Both the position numbers and the translations under genes were made by a program. Below, piece after piece: positions 17,889 through 29,766 of a stretch of DNA of 64,000 nucleotides. The notes beneath the pieces are model-generated. The model saw only the letters and a program-made list of their open reading frames with translations, was not told where the DNA came from and searched no databases. The first letter of the stretch is position 1; each line of letters begins with the position of its first letter. The DNA is from Ostreococcus lucimarinus (Eukaryota), in assembly GCA_000092065.1 (NCBI GenBank), contig CP000587.1, one strand, 5' to 3'.

Positions 17889-18126
17889 CGCCACCTAGCC
17901 ATATTATAGCCACCATTTATTCGATTAGACGACGGCTTCACACTATTTCACCTCCCGAACTGTATGCGCACACGAATAAAAGCCGATCACGCACAGCCCC
18001 ACGCGCGGCGTCGATCGCGCGCGCGCGCGTCATCGATTCCCGTCACTTCACCGCACGCGCGACGCCTCACACGCGTTCGTCGCCTCACCGCCCGTCGACG
18101 TCAAAAGAACCCAAAAAATTCTCGCA

Positions 18127-20474
18127 ATGTCGTCCGCCGCCGCCCTGAGCCCGGCCGCGCTCGCGCTCCGCGCCAAGCTCACCGCCAAGGTCCAAAACCG
18201 TCGCTCGCGCATGAGCGCCAAGGTCGTCACGCGCGCCGCCGTCGCCGCGCCGCCGGGCGTCTCCGCGGACACGGTGAACGACGCGATCAACACCGTGCGA
18301 TTTTTGGCGATCGACGCGATCAACAAGTCCAACTCCGGTCACCCCGGCTTGCCGATGGGCTGCGCGCCGATGGGCTACGTGATTTTCCGCGAAGCGATGA
18401 CGCACAACCCGAAGAACACGAAGTGGTTCAACCGCGATCGATTCGTGCTGTCCGCGGGACACGGGTGCATGCTGCAGTACTCTTTGATGCATTTGACCGG
18501 TTACCCGAGCGTTTCGGTGCGTTCGTCGCGACGCGCGCGCGCGGGCGACGCGATTCTCGAACGCGCGCGCCGATCGTGTGGATAAAGCCTCAAGTTGGGG
18601 TTTTGGATAAGAGCCCGCGCGGACGCGCGAAGGATGGACGCGAACGCGCGAGAGCGTCGCTCTGGCGGACGCGCGAGCGATGATGGAGATAAAACTCGAT
18701 GACTGACGATGAATGCGCGATGCACGCTCGACGCGCGTAGATTGAAGACATCAAGCAGTTCCGTCAGTGGGACTCCAAGACCCCGGGTCACCCGGAGAAC
18801 TTCATCACCGACGGCATCGAAGTCACCACGGGCCCGCTCGGTATGGGTATTTGCAACGCCGTCGGTCTCGCGATGGTCGAGAAGCACCTCGCCGGTCGAT
18901 TCAACAAGCCGGATTGCGAAATCGTCGATCACTACACGTACTGCGTCATGGGCGACGGCTGCAACATGGAGGGCATGTCCGGCGAAGGCGCGTCCCTCGC
19001 CGGTCACTGGGGCCTCGGCAAGTTGATTGTCTTCTATGACGACAACCACATCTCCATCGATGGTCACACCGACATCTCCTTCACGGAAGACGTCGTCGCG
19101 CGCTTCAACGCGTACGGCTGGCACACGCAACACGTCGAGAACGGTAACACCGACGTCGACTCGATTCGCGCCGCCGTCAACGCCGCCAAGGCTGACCCGC
19201 GCCCGTCGCTCATCAAGGTGACCACCTTGATTGGCTACGGTTCCCCGAACAAGTCCAACACCCACGACGTGCACGGCGCGCCGCTCGGTAAGGATGAAAC
19301 CGCCGCGACTCGCGAAAACTTGAAGTGGAAGTACGGCGAATTCGAAGTTCCGGAAGCCGTCAAGGCGTACATGGATTGCTCCGAAAAGGGCACCGCCGCC
19401 GAAGCCGAATGGAACGCCAAGTGGGCCACCTACAAGAGCAAGTACGCCGAAGATGCGGCCGAGCTCGAGTCCATCATGTCCGGCAAGTTGCCGTCTGGCT
19501 GGGAAAAGTCTCTCCCGACGTTCACGCCGGAGGACAAGGGTGTCGCCACGCGCATCCACTCCCAAACCATGCTCAACGCCCTCGGTGGCGCGATCCCGGG
19601 TTTCATGGGTGGTTCCGCCGATCTTGCGCCGTCCAACATGACGTTGATGAAGCAATTCGGTGACTTCCAAAAGGACACCCCGGCCGAGCGCAATGTTCGC
19701 TTCGGCGTCCGCGAGCACGGTATGGGTGCCATCGCCAACGGCATGAAGCTCCACTCCCCGGGTATCATTCCGTACTGCGCGACCTTCTTCATCTTCACCG
19801 ACTACATGCGTTGCGCCATGCGCATCGCCGCGCTCTCCCAAGCCGGTACCATCTTCGTCATGACGCACGATTCCATCGGCGTCGGCGAGGACGGCCCGAC
19901 TCACCAGCCGATTGAGCACGTCGCGTCCTTCCGCGCCATGCCGGGTATGGACATGGCTCGCCCGGCCGACGGCAACGAGACCGCCGCCATGTACAAGATG
20001 GCTGTCGAAAACTCGATGAACGGTGCCCCGACTACGTTGGCGCTCTCCCGCCAAGTCGTGCCGAACCTTGCGGGTACCTCCATGGAAGGCGCCGCCAAGG
20101 GTGCGTACGTCGTCCAAGGCGCCGCCGCTGGCGAAGCGTGCGACGTGATCCTCATCGGTACCGGTACCGAACTCGAACTCGCGTGCCAAGCTGGTGCCGA
20201 GCTCGAATCTAAGGGTAAGAAGGTTCGCGTTGTCTCCATGCCGTGCTGGGAAGCCTTCGAGCGCCAACCGGCCGCCTACCAAGAGTCCGTCTTGCCGGCT
20301 GCCATGCGCGCGAAGACCGTCTCCATCGAGGCGGGCACCACGTTCGGCTGGGCTAAGTACGCCGGCGCTTCCATCGGACATGACGATTTCGGCGCTTCGG
20401 CACCGGCCCCGATTCTGTACAAGCAGTTCGGAATCACTGCCGATGCCATGGCCGCGAAGGCGATGTCGTTGTAA
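18127..20474 (+). CDS. TKL: Transketolase, plastid-type with N-terminal transit peptide, two exons
   Basis: Exon 1 (18127..18516) encodes [78 protein letters not shown]...[11 protein letters not shown]. The intron is 18517..18740 (GTGCGTTCG...GATGACTGACGATG...GCGCGTAG). Exon 2 (18741..20474) encodes [21 protein letters not shown]...GDGCNMEG... to the stop. The TPP-binding and transketolase signatures run throughout. Confidence 0.92.
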
Positions 20475-20725
20475 GCGTAGGGACCGGATGTCGAAGCGTT
20501 GCGCTCGGGAAAATTCCCCGCAACGAGTCCCCGCAACGGACAGCCGCTCGTGCCACTTTAGTCGCGCACTTTTGATTGAAGTACTAATATAAATTCCTTC
20601 TCCTTTCCCGTCGTCGCCGTCCGTTCTCCTTTGCCGTCGTCGCCGTCCCGAGCTCCCGAGCTCCCGTCGCGCCGACGCCATCCCGAGCGTCGCGCCTCGC
20701 CGTCGCGACCGCACTCCGCGCCTCG

Positions 20726-21694
20726 ATGGGATGCGCGAGCTCGCGCGTCGACGTCGATCCCGCGTCGCATCGCGCGCTCGACCGGAGTTCGCCGCCGTCG
20801 ACAAGCGCCGCGGTCGCGACGTCGCGGTCGAGACGCTCGCTCGACATCTTTCACGACGCCCTGACGTCGTTTCGAGAACACTTTTCGAGCGCCTCGAAGA
20901 CGCACTGGGACGCCGCGCCGTGCGAGTGGCTGCGCGTGCGCGCCGCGTCGTACTTCGTGGACGCTAAAAAGGCACCACCGCGCGAGAGACCGCTGCTGAC
21001 GCTGCGACACGTCGATCTGTTCGATGGCTCGAGCCTGGCGAGCGACGGCGACGACGCGCGCGTCGATTTTTGTCGAACGCGACCGGAGAGTTGGTTCAGG
21101 CGCGAGTTCGAGCGCGACGGAGGAGCGACGACGGCGTGGACGTTCGCGATGCACTTCGTAAATCCGGATGGGGCGAATTTGGTGTGCTATTTTCAGCCCG
21201 AGGGCGACGGCGCGGAGAGCGTTCGCGACGCGCGGCGGTTGTGCGATTGGGTCGACGCGAATTCGTCGCCGTCGTTCGCCAAGACGTTGAGACGGTTCGT
21301 GGAGACCGATGATGACGCATATCGCGCGGCGAGAGTGAAGCTGTGCGCGAAACTTCATCCGCAGTCGCCGTTGATGTTGCGCAAGTGCGTGCCGACGAAA
21401 CCGGTGCTCGTGGGAAAACGCGCGTCGACGCGCTTTTTTCGCGGCGCCGGCGATACCGAGGGGTACGAGGACCGTTATTTAGAGTGTTGCATCGAGTGCG
21501 GGACGAGCGCGTCTGCGAAATATCTGTACAACATGTTCTCCGGGCTCAGCGCGCGGAGCGACGAGGATTTGGCGATATGGATCGAGGGCGCGCGCGAAGA
21601 CGAGTTGCCTGAGCGCGTGCTCGGCGCCGTGCGTCTGCGAAGGATTTCGCCGAAGTGCTTGACGAAGTTGACAAAACTACCTTTAGTTAGATGA
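20726..21694 (+). CDS. N-myristoylation-motif protein with a DUF1336 (EDR2 C-terminal-like) domain
   Basis: Begins MGCASS (Gly2). The C-terminal region (...[75 protein letters not shown]) follows the DUF1336 consensus (...EELPExLLGxVRL). Confidence 0.5.
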
Positions 21695-21767
21695 TCTCTT
21701 TAGCGAATTATTGTATGTGTGTATTAACCGATAGCGGCGTAGTATTATCGTCGTCACGAGACAGTCT

Positions 21768-23117
21768 CTACTCCTCCTCGTCCGGGAACAACGCGTCGAC
21801 GAACCCGACCGCGTCGAACGACTGCAAGTCTTGCATCGACTCGCCGACGCCAACGAACTTGACGGGAATCCCCAACTCATCCACCACGCTCACCACCGCG
21901 CCTCCTCGCGAGGTGCCGTCGAGCTTGGTCAAAATGATTCCCGTCACGCCCACGGCTTCGTTGAAAACGCGCGCCTGGTTGAGCATGTTCAACCCGGTGG
22001 TGCCGTCCAAGACGAGTAAAACCTCGTGCGGCGCGCTCGGCAAGCGCTTGGAGATGGAATTCTTCACCCCGACTAATTCATCCATGAGCTGAGAGTTGTT
22101 GTGCAATCGCCCGGACGTGTCCGCGAGCACGACGTCGACGTCGCCCCGCGCGCACGCCTCGTCCACCGCCTTGTAACACACCGCCCCCGGTTTGGTGTTC
22201 GGCGGCGAGTCGCTCATCACCGCTCCCGTGCGTTCAGCCCACGTCGCGAGCTGTTCGGCCGCCGCCGCGCGAAACGTGTCTCCCGGCACCATCATCACCT
22301 TCGCCCCGCTCTCCGCGAATCGATGACTCAATTTTCCCAGCGTCGTCGTCTTCCCCCCCCCGTTCACGCCCACCACCAACACCACGCTCGGTTCGCCCGC
22401 CGTCTCGTTCAATCCAATCTTCATCGCGTCCCCCGCCTTGGTCAACACCTCCACGATCGACGCCTTCAGCGCTCGCCGCACGTCCCCCCCCGTCTTACAC
22501 TCGCCTCGCTCCACGCGCGCGCGCACGCCGTCCGTCACCCGCGTCGCCGCCTTGGGCCCGAAATCCGCCCCCAGCAGCGTCTCCTCCAGCTCCTCCAGCG
22601 CGTCGTCGAAATCCTCCATGCGCCACAGCGCCAACACGTCGTTCACCGCGCTCAATCGCTCCCGCGTCTTCGACGTCCCGTTGAACACGCGCTCGACATC
22701 CATCGCCGTCTTCTTTCGCAGCACCGACGCGAGTTTGCCGAGATCGAATCCCGCGCGCGTCGCGATTCGTCTCGAGCGCGCGTCGCGACGCGCGGTGCGC
22801 GACGACGTCGACGTCGACGTCGTCGCGCGCGCGGGCGTCGCGCGCGTCGCGACGCGCGTCATCGCGTCGCGGTGTGCCGCGCGCGGACGACGATCGGGCG
22901 ATGGTTGTGGATAAGGTCCGTGTAGAGTCTCAAACAGCAACCGCCCGCCCGGCGGCGTCGCGACGACGCGCGGCGCGCGCACACGGCGACGCGGGCGCGA
23001 ACGAGCGCGACGCGAGCGCACGACGCGTCGTTCGAACCGTCCGCGCAAGTCCGACGACCGCGCGAGAGTCCGACGACCGCGCGACGCGACGCGTTCGTAA
23101 AGCGAATCGCACGACAT
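21768..23117 (-). CDS. cpFTSY: Chloroplast signal-recognition-particle receptor cpFtsY (SRP GTPase)
   Basis: NG domain with [59 protein letters not shown] and DTSGRLHNN. There is an ATG at 23117, but the transit-like stretch [15 protein letters not shown]... suggests the true start may be the internal ATG near 22862. Confidence 0.85.
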
Positions 23118-23144
23118 CGTTCGTAAGCGCGAGCTCGACGCGCG

Positions 23145-26100
23145 ATGATGACGACGGCGACGCGTCGACCGGCGACGACGGCGCGGTGGACGGCGACGCG
23201 GGATTTGGTGAAGAAGAATTCTTTGCGTCGAACGCGCGGGCGCGCGTGCGCGGCGCGCGTGCGGGCGAGCGCGCCGGAACCGCCGACGGTGCGTCGAGAC
23301 ATCGTCGCGCGACGACGCGAAACCCTGTGGATGGCGAGGGTGTGACCTAGGAGACGCGCGCGACGGAGGGCGAGGAGCGACGGCGAGGGCGCGGAGACTG
23401 ACGATGCGAGCGCGATCGGACGATTGATGCGATTAGGATCGAGCGAGCCCGTTCGGGTTCGAGCGCGAGATGGACGCGGTGGAGAAACAAATCGCGGCGC
23501 TGCCGACGGCGGCGCGGTTGGGGGCGTACGGCGCGCTCGTGGCGCTCGGCGCCGGATTGGGGAACGCGGTGGGCTCCGCGATGCCGGCGAACGTCAGGGG
23601 AGGGGCGAAAGCGGCGCTGACGGCGGTCGTCGGTGGTGGCGCCGCGTATGGGGTGTCGGTGGCGGATAAGAAGCGGTTCACGGCGGCGCCGAAGAGCTTG
23701 TGGAACTCGCTGCAGGGACGGGATCCGTTGAGCGTGACGGCTGAGGAAGTCAACGCGATGGGGGCGAAGTTTGGGATCGCGAACATGGGTCAATCGTGCG
23801 CGACGGCGATGACGGAGCTTTACGACGTCTACTTGATGTCTCTCGTGCCGCAAGGGTTGGATCCGGTGCAAGGTTGGGAAGCCGCGGCTTTGGCGCAGTT
23901 TCGCCAAACGCTCGGCATAGACGACGCCTCGGCGGCGCAGGCGCACTTGGAGGCTGGTCGTCGCTTGTTCAGAAAGCGCATCGAACTCGGATCGACGGAT
24001 AAGGAGACGGACTTGGAATCGCGCAAGGAGTTCCAAAAGCTCGTCTTCATCTCTACGCAAACCTTTGGCGAAGAGCAAGCGCGATTTTTGCTCCCGTGGA
24101 AGCGCGTGTTCCGCGTCTCGGACGCCCAAGTCGACTTGGCCAACAGAGACAACGCGAGCCAGCTGTTGCGCACGAGCTTGTCCAAATCTAACGCCATCGC
24201 TAACGTTGACGCCGCGGCGATCGCGTCGGCGGCTGACTACAAGGCGTCGCTGAATTTGGACGACGACGCCGCCGGTGAAATCGCCCAAGACCTCGCCACG
24301 GCGCACGTCGCCGGCATCGTCAACGGCACCATTACGTTGAACAAGGAACGTGGCTCTGCGCGTGACGTCGGTACGATTTGCAAGAACGTTGAACAAGTTT
24401 TGGCTTACAACGTCAAGCTCGAAGGCGCGCAAGGTTCTTTCCCGGGTGTTGGTCCGGTGACGCTGTTCGGCGGCGAGTTTGACTCGAAGATGACGGAACT
24501 CAAGGACGTGTTCAGAACCTACCTCGAGGAAGGCATCAAGGGTTACTCCTTCAGTGCCGCGCTCAACGACAACCTCGGCAAGCTCCGTCTCGTGTTTGGC
24601 ATGGGCAACAAGGAGGCAGACGACATTATTCTCGCCTCCACCACCGCCTCGTACCGCCTGGCGCTTCGCGACGCCGTCAAGAGCGGCTCGTTGGACAACG
24701 CCGAGTCTCCAGCCAAGGTGCTCCAAGGTTTGTGCGAAGGCCTCCGATTCCCTCCGGAAGTGGCTGCGGGCATTCACGAAGAGAACTATCGCACCAAGCT
24801 CGAGTCCATCATCTCATCGAATAAAAAGCTCGAAGACGCCGACGTCGAAGCCTTGGCTCGCGTTCGCAAGCTCTTGTGCGTGCCGAAGGGCGTCGTTGAG
24901 AAGCTTCACTTTGAAATCTGCGGCGAAATTTACCGCACCGCGGTTCGCTCGGCGCTTTCCGTGCCGACCGAGTCCTTCACTCCGGCGCTTCGCGACCGAT
25001 GCAAGGCTGCCAAGGCAAACGTTCGTCTCGACGACGAAACCGCGCTCAAGATTCTCGGCGCCGAGGCTCGCAAGCAAATGAGTGGTTTCATCCGCACGTC
25101 CAAGTCCATTAGAAACAAGACGGACGCGCAGAAGGAGATTCGCAAGATGATCTTCTACAACCAAGGCGTCGTGACGCCGCTCGTGCAGGACGTGACCAAG
25201 GCAAAGGCTGAGGCGGCGGCGGAGGAGCTCGCCTCGCTCTTGAAGGAGGCGCAAGAGGCGGCGGCGAAGGAGGAAGCGGAAGAGAAGGCGAAAGCCGCCG
25301 CGGAGGCTACCGCGGCGGAGCCTGAAGCCGCCGCTGAGCCCACGGTGGATGATAGCCTTCGAAGTGCGGCGGAGGGTCAAGGCTTCGCCAGTGACACCCC
25401 CAAGAAGGTTGAGGAAGTGAAGGCTGAGGCGGCGACGGAGACCGCGGAGGAGGAAGAGAAAGAGGAAGAAGTCGTCGTCAAGGAGGAAGAAGTCCCGCAC
25501 CAGAAGGAAGTCACGCTCGCCGAAGACATGGATGTGGTCACTCGCCAAGCGATGTACAGAGAATACCTCATGTTCTGCATGACTGGTGATCAAGTGAACG
25601 CCCCGATGGGCGTGCGCATCAACATCGAGCGCGACCAAAGCGAATTCAAGCGCTTGTCCCAGCTCGGCGATATCCTCGGCCTTAACATGATGGAAGTCGG
25701 TCAAGTGCACAAGGATCTGGCCGACAAGGCGTTCCGGACGCAAGCTGAGCAAATGCTCGGCGACGGCCGCGGCCTCACCGCCGATCGCGCCGAGAAGCTC
25801 AAGGAAATTCAGACGCAGCTCAACTTGCCCGAGGACGAGGCGCAAAAGATCATCAAGGGCATCACCTCGCAACGCATGATGTCCAACGTTCAGCAGCAAA
25901 TTGCTTCTGGTACGCTCGATGCGGCTGAGGTGAGAAAGATGATCGAAGCTGGCGTCGAAATCGAGCGCATGATTCCGGAAGACAAGCGCATGAACTTGTT
26001 CCGCAAAAACGCCGAGCGCCGTTTGGGCGACGGAAGCGGAAGCGCCGACATCGAAGCGCTCACGGGTACCTTGGTCGAAGATCTCAAGATTGATGGTGAG

Positions 26101-26448
26101 AAGGCCAAGACTGAGCTCAAGAACATCGCTGCCGAGAAGAAGCGCTCTCAAATGATTCAAGGCGTCGCTGTCTTGCGTCAAAAGAAGGCTGCCGACGTCC
26201 TCCTGTGCTGCCGCAACTTGGTCGCGTGCCAAGCCGTGGCGCCCGAGGCCAAGTTGGAGTGGAAGGTGGAATCTGAGGTGTTCGACATGTACTCTGTCTT
26301 CGTCCAAGAGTGCTCAGACGTGGAAGAGCGCAAGGTTCTTCAATCTGCTTTGAGCATTAGCGACGAAAGCGCCCGCAAGCTTGAACAAGTCGTCGCCGAC
26401 GGCGCGTTCAAGTTTTCCGAAGACTCGTTAGACGAGGCCCTCTTCTAG
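23145..26448 (+). CDS. TIC110: Tic110, chloroplast inner-envelope translocon component, two exons (transit-peptide exon plus main exon)
   Basis: The main ORF (23470..26448) matches plant Tic110: GEEQARFLLPWKRVFRVSDAQVDLANRDNASQLL versus Arabidopsis GDASSFLLPWKRVLKVTDAQVEIAIRENAKQLY, with the same order of helical repeats, but it lacks any transit peptide. A candidate exon (23145..23288, MMTTATRRPATTARWTATRDLVKKNSLRRTRGRACAARVRASAPEPPT) ends at a GTGCGTCG donor. The intron is 23289..23436 (GGAGACTGACGATG branch, GATTAG acceptor). Exon 2 reads DRASPFGFERE in frame into the Tic110 ATG. Confidence 0.85.
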
Positions 26449-26471
26449 TTTCTCGATCTAGATTGAGAAAC
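26446..26471 (+). terminator. Near-perfect 13-bp inverted repeat directly after the Tic110 stop codon
   Basis: The sequence is tagTTTCTCGATCTAGATTGAGAAAc, which would form a stem-loop with one mismatch. It lies at the start of an AT-rich convergent 3' region (26449..26585). Confidence 0.25.
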
Positions 26472-26585
26472 GATCCACCGTAGCAAAGAATTGATTGATT
26501 CGAAACTTAAAGCTTTATTGTTGTCATTACGCATGTGGCACGAACAAAAGTCATCTAGATGCTAACGCTACTCTTCGCTCCGCGC

Positions 26586-27932
26586 TCAACTCGCGCCGAT
26601 GCCTCGAAACGCGCCAGCGGCGTCGAGAGCTTTGACGCTGCACGCGGCGACCACACCGACGGAAGTCGCCGCGCACGCCCCGACGACGAACGGCGCCACA
26701 CCGACGCCGCTAAGCGCCGACGCGCTCATGCATAAACCGACCGCCGCCATGGATGTCGGCAAAACCACGTTGGACGCGAAATCCCCCGTCGCCTTGTGGA
26801 AACGCTTCCACCGCGCGTCGTCGCGAACGGATTCCGTGGCGTCCCCGAGCGAACGCAGCGCCGCCATCGCGACGAACGCGATCAAAAACCCCGGCACGAG
26901 CGCCGGACGCTTCGCCGCCGCGCCCGCGCCCGCGTCCGCGCTCCTGAACGCGTACGCGAGATACGGAATCGCCAACGCCAGGGTGAGATTTCTCGTCAAC
27001 TTTGTCACCGTCGCCGCCTTAAACGCCATCTCATCCTCGAACGCGTCTCGAAACGTCATCCCTGCCCCGACGACCTGCGCCGTATCGTGCACGCTGAGCC
27101 CCAAAAACACCCCCGCCGGGACGCCGCCCTCCGGAAACAACCGCTTCGCCGCCCACGGATACGCCAGCATCCCGAGCGTCCCGTACGCCGCCACGTTCGC
27201 CACCGCCACCCCAATCTCCCGCTGACTCGCCCCGATCGCCGGCGCCAGTCCCCCGATCGCCGTCACGCCGCACACGCTCGTTCCCGCCGCCAGCAGCGCG
27301 CCCACCTTTCGCGTCAGCCCGCTCGCCGGTCCGAACCTTTCGCTCGCCGCCCTTCGCAGCGCCGGCGTCGCCGCGAGCCCGGTCGTCACCGTCGCCGCGA
27401 TCGCCGGCGCCGCCGCCGTCGCCGTCTCCCCGATCTCGCGCAACGAAAGCTTCGCCCCCAGCGCGGCGATCCCGAGTTTCAGCCCTCGATCCGCGCACGC
27501 CCGCGCGCCCGGCTCGAAGATTCTCGCGAACGCGGCCTCGCGCGTTCGAAATCTTCGTCGCAGCAGCGCCCCCCCGGCGATCGCGAGCGGCGCCGCGGGC
27601 GCGGGCGACGCCCCGTCGCGGTTCGCGACGCGTCCGATCGCGCCCGACGTCGCCGTCGCGAGCGCGCACGTCGCGAGCGCGAGCGCGACGCCCGCGGCTT
27701 TCGTCGCCATCGCGTCGGCAACCGCCGCGACAGAGCGACGCGGAGTGACGACGCGCGACGGCGCGACGGCGCGCGCGTTCGGGCGCGGGCGCGAAGAAAA
27801 AATCGACTCGCTCGACGGCGCGGTCGACGGGACGAGGCGCGACGGCGGCGAGCGACGGCGCGACGAAGACGCGAAGACGGACGACGAAATGACGGCGGGC
27901 GCGCGGACGACGACGACGCTGGAGCGGTACAC
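26586..27932 (-). CDS. YeiH/UPF0324-family polytopic membrane protein, possibly with an N-terminal transit peptide
   Basis: Matches the bacterial YeiH family: TSVCGVTAIGGLAPAIGAS (ICGxSAI signature) and GVFLGLSVHDTAQVVGAG (HExAQVV signature). The track ORF starts with GTG; an in-frame ATG at about 27710 (MATKAAGVALALA...) is the conservative start. The preceding S/T/R-rich 74 aa could be a targeting peptide if an upstream exon exists. Confidence 0.6.
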   Translation of the reverse strand: MYRSSVVVVRAPAVISSSVFASSSRRRSPPSRLVPSTAPSSESIFSSRPRPNARAVAPSRVVTPRRSVAAVADAMATKAAGVALALATCALATATSGAIGRVANRDGASPAPAAPLAIAGGALLRRRFRTREAAFARIFEPGARACADRGLKLGIAALGAKLSLREIGETATAAAPAIAATVTTGLAATPALRRAASERFGPASGLTRKVGALLAAGTSVCGVTAIGGLAPAIGASQREIGVAVANVAAYGTLGMLAYPWAAKRLFPEGGVPAGVFLGLSVHDTAQVVGAGMTFRDAFEDEMAFKAATVTKLTRNLTLALAIPYLAYAFRSADAGAGAAAKRPALVPGFLIAFVAMAALRSLGDATESVRDDARWKRFHKATGDFASNVVLPTSMAAVGLCMSASALSGVGVAPFVVGACAATSVGVVAACSVKALDAAGAFRGIGAS

Positions 27933-29664
27933 GCCGCGGGACGCGGACCCGGACGAGGTGTTCGAGGAGATGATTTTGGATTGGCGCGCGAATCCGCGGG
28001 TGAAGCTGCGGCGAAGGCGCGAGTGGGGGTGGGACGCGAGGGACGCGGCGACGACGGCGGCGCTGAGCGCGGCGTGGACGCTGGGACCGGCGACGCTGGC
28101 GTGGACGGCGGCGAAGGCGTACGTGAATCGGGGAAGCGCGATGGAGCGAAGGAAGAAAAAGTGGGGGGTCGTGATGGCGCTCGCGGCGAGCGAATTGGGG
28201 TGGTACGCGCACAGGCGAGGGGTCGGGAAGCGATTCGACGACGACGAAAATATGAAGGCGACGCCGACGCGACGGGATTTCGATCGGTTCTTGCAGCTTC
28301 GCTACGACGGAGTGTTGGATTTTAACGCGTACATCAGGGGATGGATGAAGACGTGGAAGAGTTTCGCGTTCGGTGAACGCGAGAATCCGTTTCGGGCGAC
28401 GCCGTCGAGCCCGCCCTTGTCCAGGGCGTCGACGCCCGGGATCGATCGCGCCGAGTCGCCGGCGTTTCACCGAGAGACGGCGCTGGATTTTTTACGTTTC
28501 GGCTTTCACGACGCGCTGAGCGCGGAAGAGATCGGCGAGCGCAAAGAGCGGGAGCTGAGGACATTCATGGAGGAAATTGAGGCGCACTGGAACTTGAAAT
28601 TCGACGACAACGCGGCGAGGGAATCGTTCGAGTTTATGTTTCACACAAAGGAAAAGCTCGGGGCGTTGCATCAACCGCTGTTGTTCACCGCGTGGGTGAA
28701 CGGTGTGGCGGGCGTGACCGGGCTGGCGTTACACGCGTTGGGATTTAAATTGTATCACGGCGCCAACGGGTGTTCGTACTGGGCGAACTGCGAAATCGTC
28801 GAGAATAATTGGAAGCGACGACGCGCGAGGACGGCGACGCGAGAGACGAGGCACGGCCGAGGCGTCGAGACGAGACCGGTGTTGTGCGGAGACGCGGGCG
28901 ACGCGAGCGACGGCGATACGAAGCCAATCATTTTCGTCCACGGCCTGGGCGTCGGACTCGCGCCGTATGTTCCGCACATCGCGCAACTCTTGCGCAGCAG
29001 ACCGAATCGCAAAATCGCCATGCTGACGCTTCCTCACATTAGCATGCGAGCGGTGCCGAAGGTGCCTGAACTCGACGACATGGTGGACACGGTGGTGGAA
29101 ATCACGAAGAAGCACGCATTTCGCGCGCCAGCGCTGTACGGACACAGTTTCGGCACCTTTGTCGTGGCGAGGACGTGTCAAAGGTTTTGCGTGAGTTCAA
29201 TCGTGCTCCTCGATCCGGTTTGCGTGTGCTTGTGCTTACCGCAAACTGTAGGTATTTTATACCAGCTCAATAAGAGCTGGGTCGACTTCAGGAATAGACT
29301 CATGGAAGGTCCGCGAACGCTCGCGACCGCGTCGTTTTGGCGCGATGGAAATGCATTGTTGTACTTTTTGTTGCGCGACTACTTTCTTCTTCGAGAAATC
29401 GGCGTCATGACGGCGCTTCGAAGAAAGTTTTGGTGGGCTCGTTATAACTTGTGGGCGGACGATTTGCCGGTGGACTCACTCATCGTGCTCGAATCGAATG
29501 ATCTATTGCTCGACACGGACGCCATCTGCAGGCACGTGTTGAGGCAATCAAAGGCGCGAATTATTTGGCAAGAGAAATTCGCGCACGGCGAATTTTGCAT
29601 GCCGTGGGGATACGGCTTGCGAAGCGACGTTGTCGACTTCTTAGACGCGTTAAAGAACGCGTAA
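27889..29664 (+). CDS. Alpha/beta-hydrolase fold protein with a long N-terminal membrane-associated extension
   Basis: C-terminal hydrolase core PIIFVHGLGVGLAPYVPH...LYGHSFGTFVV (GxSxG nucleophile elbow). The track ORF starts with GTG at 27745; the first ATG is at about 27889. Confidence 0.55.
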   Translation: MTAGARTTTTLERYTPRDADPDEVFEEMILDWRANPRVKLRRRREWGWDARDAATTAALSAAWTLGPATLAWTAAKAYVNRGSAMERRKKKWGVVMALAASELGWYAHRRGVGKRFDDDENMKATPTRRDFDRFLQLRYDGVLDFNAYIRGWMKTWKSFAFGERENPFRATPSSPPLSRASTPGIDRAESPAFHRETALDFLRFGFHDALSAEEIGERKERELRTFMEEIEAHWNLKFDDNAARESFEFMFHTKEKLGALHQPLLFTAWVNGVAGVTGLALHALGFKLYHGANGCSYWANCEIVENNWKRRRARTATRETRHGRGVETRPVLCGDAGDASDGDTKPIIFVHGLGVGLAPYVPHIAQLLRSRPNRKIAMLTLPHISMRAVPKVPELDDMVDTVVEITKKHAFRAPALYGHSFGTFVVARTCQRFCVSSIVLLDPVCVCLCLPQTVGILYQLNKSWVDFRNRLMEGPRTLATASFWRDGNALLYFLLRDYFLLREIGVMTALRRKFWWARYNLWADDLPVDSLIVLESNDLLLDTDAICRHVLRQSKARIIWQEKFAHGEFCMPWGYGLRSDVVDFLDALKNA

Positions 29665-29766
29665 TAGGCGCTCATGCCGTGATATTGGTGTAATAATGAG
29701 AATAGCTAATTGATCTTCGCTCTTTTACACGCAAGCGAGCTAATGGTACATTTGTTTCACATTTTT

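Follow-up and report, generated by a model that had tools for sequence, protein, structure and literature searches.

The Tic110 precursor is known to carry a cleavable transit peptide and to be processed by the stromal peptidase (PMC2064566), and the question raised by its gene in Ostreococcus lucimarinus is where that precursor begins. The gene lies in the window, i.e., the whole stretch of 64,000 nucleotides (nt) of O. lucimarinus DNA analyzed here (G+C 61.7%), where a long open reading frame (ORF) on the plus strand, 23470-26448, is 100% identical over the common residues to the NCBI O. lucimarinus 'Tic110 family transporter' (P0002), the NCBI/JGI CCE9901 model of the same locus. Head to head with it, the minus-strand ORF 21768-23117 encodes a cpFtsY-type receptor of the signal recognition particle (SRP54_N and SRP54 GTPase domains) and opens at ATG 23117. 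An earlier reading of the sequence, hereafter the original prediction, had proposed that a hidden ATG-initiated exon with a transit-peptide-like segment is spliced to Tic110, and our results agree with it: with a probability of roughly 0.92, the Tic110 gene consists of two exons, join(23145..23288, 23437..26448), encoding a precursor of 1051 amino acids (aa). The hidden first exon is strongly supported by the comparison of orthologues, by transcript evidence and by existing annotations, while splicing in O. lucimarinus itself is inferred from these orthologues and not from its own transcripts. The parts of the proposed gene are as follows.

23145..23288, plus strand: Tic110 exon 1, 48 codons, MMTTATRRPATTARWTATRDLVKKNSLRRTRGRACAARVRASAPEPPT; start at ATG 23145 or at the adjacent ATG 23148
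23289..23436, plus strand: Tic110 intron, spliceosomal, phase 0, 148 nt
23437..26448, plus strand: Tic110 exon 2, stop codon included; its first 11 codons (23437-23469) encode DRASPFGFERE

Reading frame and splice sites of the Tic110 gene

If left unspliced, the frame that opens at 23145 meets a stop after 18 further codons, and removal of the 148-nt intron restores an open frame in phase 0. The donor GTGCGTCG starts at 23289 (5' splice site GTGCGTC, 23289-23295), the branch-motif stretch GACTGACGA is located at 23396-23404 (motif GACTGACG at 23396-23403), with the branch A at 23401, 35 nt from the intron 3' end, and the acceptor TTAG occupies 23433-23436. Exon 2 reads DRASPFGFERE-MDAVEKQ, in frame with the ORF ATG at 23470. 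Since the acceptor TAG doubles as an in-frame stop directly 5' of exon 2, the DRASPFGFERE segment is unreachable without splicing. The coordinates originally put forward (ATG 23145, 48 codons, donor at 23289, 148-nt intron, TTAG and in-frame join) all hold; as for the distance of 34 nt given between branch and acceptor, motif and position are confirmed and the figure depends on the counting, being 35 nt for the branch A.

The spliced protein matches Pfam PF16940 (Tic110) with an E-value of 2.2e-168, the full profile (1-574 of 574) aligning with spliced residues 60-631. Two hydrophobic helices are found near its N-terminus (spliced residues ~67-99 and ~105-125, Kyte-Doolittle windows >1.2), both of which align and are conserved across Mamiellales and Chara. 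The original prediction had the ORF Met starting inside the first of these helices, a point to be corrected, as the Met actually stands about 8-10 residues before it.

Other in-frame donors, at 22795, 22872, 23123 and 23246, were considered and rejected, being without conserved counterparts and without an ATG-initiated exon resembling a chloroplast transit peptide; two of the four also fall within cpFtsY or overlap it. When 22000-24000 was scanned against Rfam, the only matches were sub-threshold chance ones (E >= 0.2), none in the intron or the intergenic region, and therefore the Tic110 intron is not known to host a non-coding RNA.

Two-exon layout in other Mamiellales

Comparison with Tic110 orthologues of Ostreococcus and Micromonas, suggested as a check in the original prediction, revealed the two-exon layout in the relatives, which were taken as genomic contigs from Mamiellales lineages (L numbers). 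Seven other lineages have this layout: their exon 1 is 44-60 codons long, and a phase-0 intron follows it at the homologous position; in eight genomic lineages, the window included, the phase-0 intron thus occupies one position. Wherever a locus includes enough upstream DNA, it contains one exon that opens with ATG and closes in phase 0 at a good donor.

Window, O. lucimarinus: exon 1 of 48 codons, donor GTGCGT, intron of 148 nt
L002, O. tauri-like: exon 1 of 47 codons, donor GTGCGT, intron of 181 nt
L004, Ostreococcus: exon 1 of 44 codons, donor GTGCGT, intron of 296 nt
L006, Ostreococcus: exon 1 of 53 codons, donor GTACGT, intron of 277 nt
L009, Ostreococcus: exon 1 of 50 codons, donor GTGCGC, intron of 150 nt
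L011, Bathycoccus: exon 1 of 56 codons, donor GTTCGT, intron of 181 nt
L014, Micromonas: exon 1 of 49 codons, donor GTAAGT, intron of 379 nt
L016, M. bravo-like: exon 1 of 60 codons, donor GTACGT, intron of ~424 nt

In all but two of the eight loci, a CTGAC branch precedes the acceptor by 28-41 nt (~45 nt in L016), the motif being CTCAC in L004 and TTGAT/TTCAT in the Bathycoccus contig L011. The O. mediterraneus-like contig L010 includes only 333 nt of upstream DNA, in which acceptor and branch motif are visible, exon 1 falling beyond the contig end.

The peptide encoded directly upstream of the called Tic110 start is itself conserved, as (D/E/G)xxSPF(G/A/S)(F/Y)x(R/K/I/Q)(E/D)(L/M)D, in five other Ostreococcus lineages, two Bathycoccus and two Micromonas sequences, and the SPF motif is still recognisable in Chara (as an F-x-x-ERE-L motif before the helix). 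In each genomic locus a YAG acceptor stands 9-12 nt before the SPF codons with no in-frame ATG between them, and several species have an in-frame stop there. The residue corresponding to the O. lucimarinus 'start' Met (23470) is Leu in the six other Ostreococcus and Bathycoccus sequences, L006 has no ATG at this position, and Micromonas has Met. Because the Met is Leu in relatives and the acceptor or stop is reached without an in-frame ATG, the Tic110 coding sequence must extend upstream, which is attainable only via splicing.

Transcript and annotation evidence

Evidence for a spliced messenger at the homologous junction comes from Micromonas bravo, where residues 1-60 of the transcriptome protein P0147 (MMETSP1401) match genomic positions 2358-2537 of L016 at 100%, and the protein resumes after the ~424-nt intron at ...ACACAG|GGCGGCTCG. 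The O. tauri reference proteins (CEF98872.1/XP_022839519.1 and OUS47209.1, P0005 cluster) are 1035 aa long, the length predicted for the spliced L002 product, from which they differ at 4-5 residues, none of them at the junction. The O. tauri v2 annotation was RNA-seq-guided and manually curated, with 89% of introns validated (PMC4378021), and the O. tauri model thus implies spliced transcripts in that species. Models of B. prasinos (CAL6324598.1 and others, 1052 aa) also begin with exon 1 (...GKPVPPE|DQPSPFSF).

Exon 1 is absent from an older O. tauri model (P0166) and from the NCBI O. lucimarinus model. The latter (P0002, 901 aa) starts at MPANVRGG, position 23581 of the window, and therefore misses three features that the corrected model brings back, namely the first membrane helix, the conserved motif at the N-terminus and the transit peptide. 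It also removes 25345-25506, an in-frame acidic segment of 162 nt (GTGGAT...AAG, lacking consensus splice signals and any ACTGAC motif) that is kept in the O. tauri model, and this internal 'intron' is probably spurious. The proposed 1051-aa model corrects both the start and this excision.

Intron class and internal control

Introns of O. lucimarinus confirmed by expressed sequence tags outside chromosome 2 have an atypical 5' consensus, GTGCGTG, and 66.5% of them contain GACTGACG (Irimia and Roy 2008, PMC2483917). With respect to these strong-consensus introns, the Tic110 intron has GTGCGTC instead of GTGCGTG, the exact GACTGACG and a typical size; there is no notable difference, the Tic110 intron simply lying outside the predicted set. 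A transketolase intron in the same window (18517-18740, plus strand) served as an internal control: it has the donor GTGCGTTCG, the branch GACTGACGA (18701-18709) and a TAG acceptor, and it is proven by homology, as the peptide spliced after GYPSVS aligns gap-free with maize transketolase 1ITZ. Its branch A is placed 34 nt from the intron 3' end vs. 35 nt in Tic110. Judged by its signals (GTGCGT...GACTGACG...YAG, with the acceptor about 30-40 nt past the branch motif), the Tic110 intron would rank among the canonical U2-type introns with strong signals, the class typical of this genome. The first transketolase exon also opens with a transit-peptide-like peptide.

Predicted transit peptide and probable import route

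The peptide encoded by exon 1 has a net charge of +10, 23% Ser+Thr, 19% Ala and 4% acidic residues, and in all lineages exon 1 is basic (net +6 to +10), rich in Ser/Thr/Ala and nearly devoid of acidic residues. Given that the AT-rich Bathycoccus shares these features, the composition is not merely an artefact of G+C content. Outside a C-terminal block, R-x-R-V-x-(R/V)-A-S/N-A-P-x-P-P-T/E, the peptides of exon 1 show little conservation; in O. lucimarinus the exon ends with ...ARVRA|SAPEPPT, and the V-R-A|S motif is conserved in relatives. This composition and this motif lead us to infer a chloroplast transit peptide, some 40 residues long, in the exon 1 product. Cleavage would probably occur after the conserved V-R-A (V-R-A|S, of the stromal-processing-peptidase type), leaving SAPEPPT-DRASPFGFERE ahead of the helices, in which case exon 1 would also encode the first residues of the mature protein. 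The intron would then stand between a presequence of low conservation and the conserved N-terminal segment of the mature protein, DRASPFGFERE, which precedes the membrane helices.

Plant Tic110 is imported via Toc/Tic, passes through a stromal intermediate and is inserted into the inner envelope (PMC2064566). By analogy, the spliced O. lucimarinus precursor may follow the same route of Toc/Tic import, stromal cleavage and inner-envelope insertion.

Start of cpFtsY and the intergenic region

The second question posed by the locus is where cpFtsY begins. The ORF does open at ATG 23117, 28 bp from ATG 23145, as originally noted, and from this spacing an extremely compact promoter or overlapping 5' ends had been proposed, unless cpFtsY started at an internal Met. 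It is this latter proviso that is borne out, by orthologue N-termini and by strain indels: in the alignment, cpFtsY orthologues begin with a Ser/Thr/Arg-rich Met that stands some 40-50 residues ahead of the conserved GFDLGKL, as does Met 22862. The features of the region are given below.

21768..22862, minus strand: cpFtsY coding sequence, 364 aa, start Met at 22862, with a transit-peptide-like N-terminus
22863..23117, minus strand: spurious 85-codon upstream extension of the cpFtsY ORF, non-coding
22863..23144, no strand: divergent intergenic region that separates the start codons of cpFtsY and Tic110 by 282 bp

The cpFtsY product matches SRP54_N (PF02881, E 3.3e-10) and the SRP54 GTPase (PF00448, E 6.8e-69). 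Its upstream extension is frame-broken between strains, as indels of -2, +1, -1 and +2 nt between the window and L001 shift the frame and the encoded peptide becomes wholly different; no counterpart of it exists in any other species compared, and its peptide is less transit-peptide-like, with 8% acidic residues. The length assigned to cpFtsY by gene callers is strain-dependent, with 449 aa in four other strains, 364 aa in two and 390 aa in one.

An alignment of nine O. lucimarinus-like haplotypes (the window, L001 and L018-L024) gave the following variable columns.

cpFtsY coding sequence up to 22862: 6/393 (1.5%)
Intergenic region 22863-23144: 33/282, including indels of 1-2 nt (11.7%)
Tic110 exon 1: 1/144 (0.7%)
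Tic110 intron: 1/148 (0.7%)
Tic110 exon 2, first 564 nt: 1/564 (0.2%)

Indels among these haplotypes are confined to 22863-23144. In its lack of variation the Tic110 intron (1/148) resembles the exons, in contrast to the hypervariable intergenic DNA. An in-frame TAA at 23124-23126, seven codons upstream of the Tic110 ATG, is present only in the window strain, the eight other haplotypes having CGC and a frame that stays open further up; since this stop is unique to one strain, the intergenic region appears to be unconstrained. With the cpFtsY start at 22862, 282 bp rather than 28 lie between the start codons, and the 28-bp spacing is an artefact of a spurious GC-rich ORF extension. The stretch 22863-23144 must consequently hold both promoters and both 5' untranslated regions. 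With 404-590 bp between start codons in relatives, the spacing is short without being exceptional.

In the middle of the intergenic region a direct repeat, GTCCGACGACCGCGCGA, occurs at 23049-23065 and 23068-23084, its copies 2 nt apart. This tandem repeat (23049-23084) was not found in other species and may be a regulatory element or mere slippage.

Conservation of the divergent pair

The head-to-head arrangement itself is real, the starts being divergent and less than 1 kb apart (282 bp, from ATG 22862 on the minus strand to ATG 23145 on the plus strand), and the pair is kept in four Ostreococcus clades, Bathycoccus and two Micromonas species. Around it, at ~18000-29700 of the window and in L006, L009, L011, L014 and L016, the order is a transketolase and/or EDR2_C gene, cpFtsY (minus strand), Tic110 (plus strand), Cons_hypoth698 (minus strand) and Abhydrolase_6 (plus strand); this order is largely conserved across the Ostreococcus clades, and the cpFtsY/Tic110 core is found also in Bathycoccus and Micromonas. 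In the O. tauri-like contigs L002 and L003, which end ~730 nt upstream of exon 1, no cpFtsY was detected; on the basis of these first 730 nt, the O. tauri intergenic region may be longer, or the arrangement may differ or be repetitive.

Alternative readings of the locus

Several observations weigh against a spliced Tic110 gene. The motif GACTGACG occurs 8 times in the window vs. 4.0 expected and the loose pattern GTGCGT...ACTGAC...YAG 6 times vs. ~2.4, so that the combination of splice signals is by itself only ~2.5-fold enriched over chance, a modest and not decisive excess; random ORFs of high G+C content yield Arg/Ala-rich peptides as well; the exact 1051-aa protein was not found in a collection of 15 billion proteins, and the 25-mer spanning the exon1|exon2 junction had 0 matches in JGI metagenome contigs. 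The last of these is uninformative, because the junction 25-mer of the homology-proven transketolase intron has 0 matches as well, in a collection without spliced transcripts of O. lucimarinus. As the splice signals alone are not decisive, the case for the exon rests on the comparative evidence, and conservation of the whole layout in seven other lineages is far beyond chance. Should Tic110 instead start at ATG 23470, it would be a single-exon gene of 992 aa with no cleavable presequence and with upstream features due to chance. Such an ORF is indeed continuous and is called by prokaryote-style gene callers, the Pfam profile begins exactly at its Met (spliced residue 60) and is neutral in not requiring an extension, Micromonas shares the Met, and a minority class of inner-envelope proteins is without cleavable transit peptides; however, Tic110 belongs to the cleavable class (PMC2064566), in the six other Ostreococcus and Bathycoccus sequences the Met gives way to Leu, with no ATG at this point in L006, the 11 upstream codons are conserved as protein across the order and, in the window, bounded by the in-frame stop within the acceptor, and exon 1 is included in the M. 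bravo transcript and in the O. tauri and Bathycoccus models, which together make a start at 23470 very improbable. Hardly any credence can be given to a start of cpFtsY at ATG 23117, with 28 bp of spacing and overlapping 5' ends or a minimal shared promoter: the minus-strand ORF of 449 aa is uninterrupted, and four other strains yield the same length, but the indels vs. L001, the 11.7% of variable columns, the shorter calls in three strains, the absence of a homologous extension in relatives and its acidic residues all speak for Met 22862.

With Tic110 spliced and cpFtsY starting at 22862, the conserved pairing could still reflect a selected bidirectional promoter co-regulating the two genes rather than passive synteny. 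Both products act in chloroplast protein targeting, and the genes stay divergent in Ostreococcus, Bathycoccus and Micromonas alike, with 282-590 bp between starts; yet the pair is part of a larger conserved block (EDR2_C or transketolase, cpFtsY, Tic110, Cons_hypoth698, Abhydrolase_6) and therefore requires no special selection, no other segment evolves as fast within the species as the intergenic region, the intergenic regions share no promoter motif across species beyond CG-rich low-complexity 9-mers, and the O. tauri contigs show no cpFtsY in the 730 nt upstream of exon 1. Such a promoter is possible but unsupported, and we consider it doubtful. Unlikely, too, are the readings that cpFtsY-Tic110 is a selected co-regulated unit and, as a separate matter, that the phase-0 intron at the boundary between transit peptide and mature protein is an ancient relic of presequence acquisition by exon shuffling; the latter would gain support if the boundary intron were common beyond Mamiellales.

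Comparison with known Tic110 genes and consequences for gene models

The two-exon gene finds its closest parallel in O. tauri, where Tic110 likewise has two exons, the 47 codons of exon 1 (MMALGC...VRANAPREGT) joining ERASPFAF..., with ~86% identity in the mature protein; the O. tauri-like contigs have the donor GTGCGTGG and the branch TGACTGACGA. The O. tauri gene differs in its intron, 181 nt vs. 148, and in an exon 1 that is poorly conserved bar the C-terminal block. Plant Tic110 precursors (pea, Arabidopsis) are similar in having a cleavable transit peptide, two N-terminal helices and a large soluble domain (PMC2064566, PMC3823011), although the experimental demonstration of import, cleavage and re-insertion comes only from plants, and these steps would apply to O. 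lucimarinus by extension. The finding is a gene-model correction of a known kind, in line with the annotations of O. tauri and Bathycoccus and with textbook Tic110 biology, and the understanding of chloroplast protein import is unchanged by it. Its weight is practical: targeting predictions, chloroplast proteome inventories and orthologue alignments built on the public 901-aa model would be misled.

Two traps of GC-rich, intron-poor picoalgal genomes are met at this locus, namely that gene finders miss short 5' exons encoding targeting peptides and that spurious long ORF extensions, such as that of cpFtsY, mimic overlapping genes. Long overlapping ORFs of 150-500 aa are also present on both strands (e.g., 22859-23302 minus, 22874-23350 plus and 23347-24777 minus) and are mechanical artefacts; on metagenome contigs, prokaryote-style gene callers list several of them as proteins, for instance one of 232 aa across the Micromonas intron in L016.

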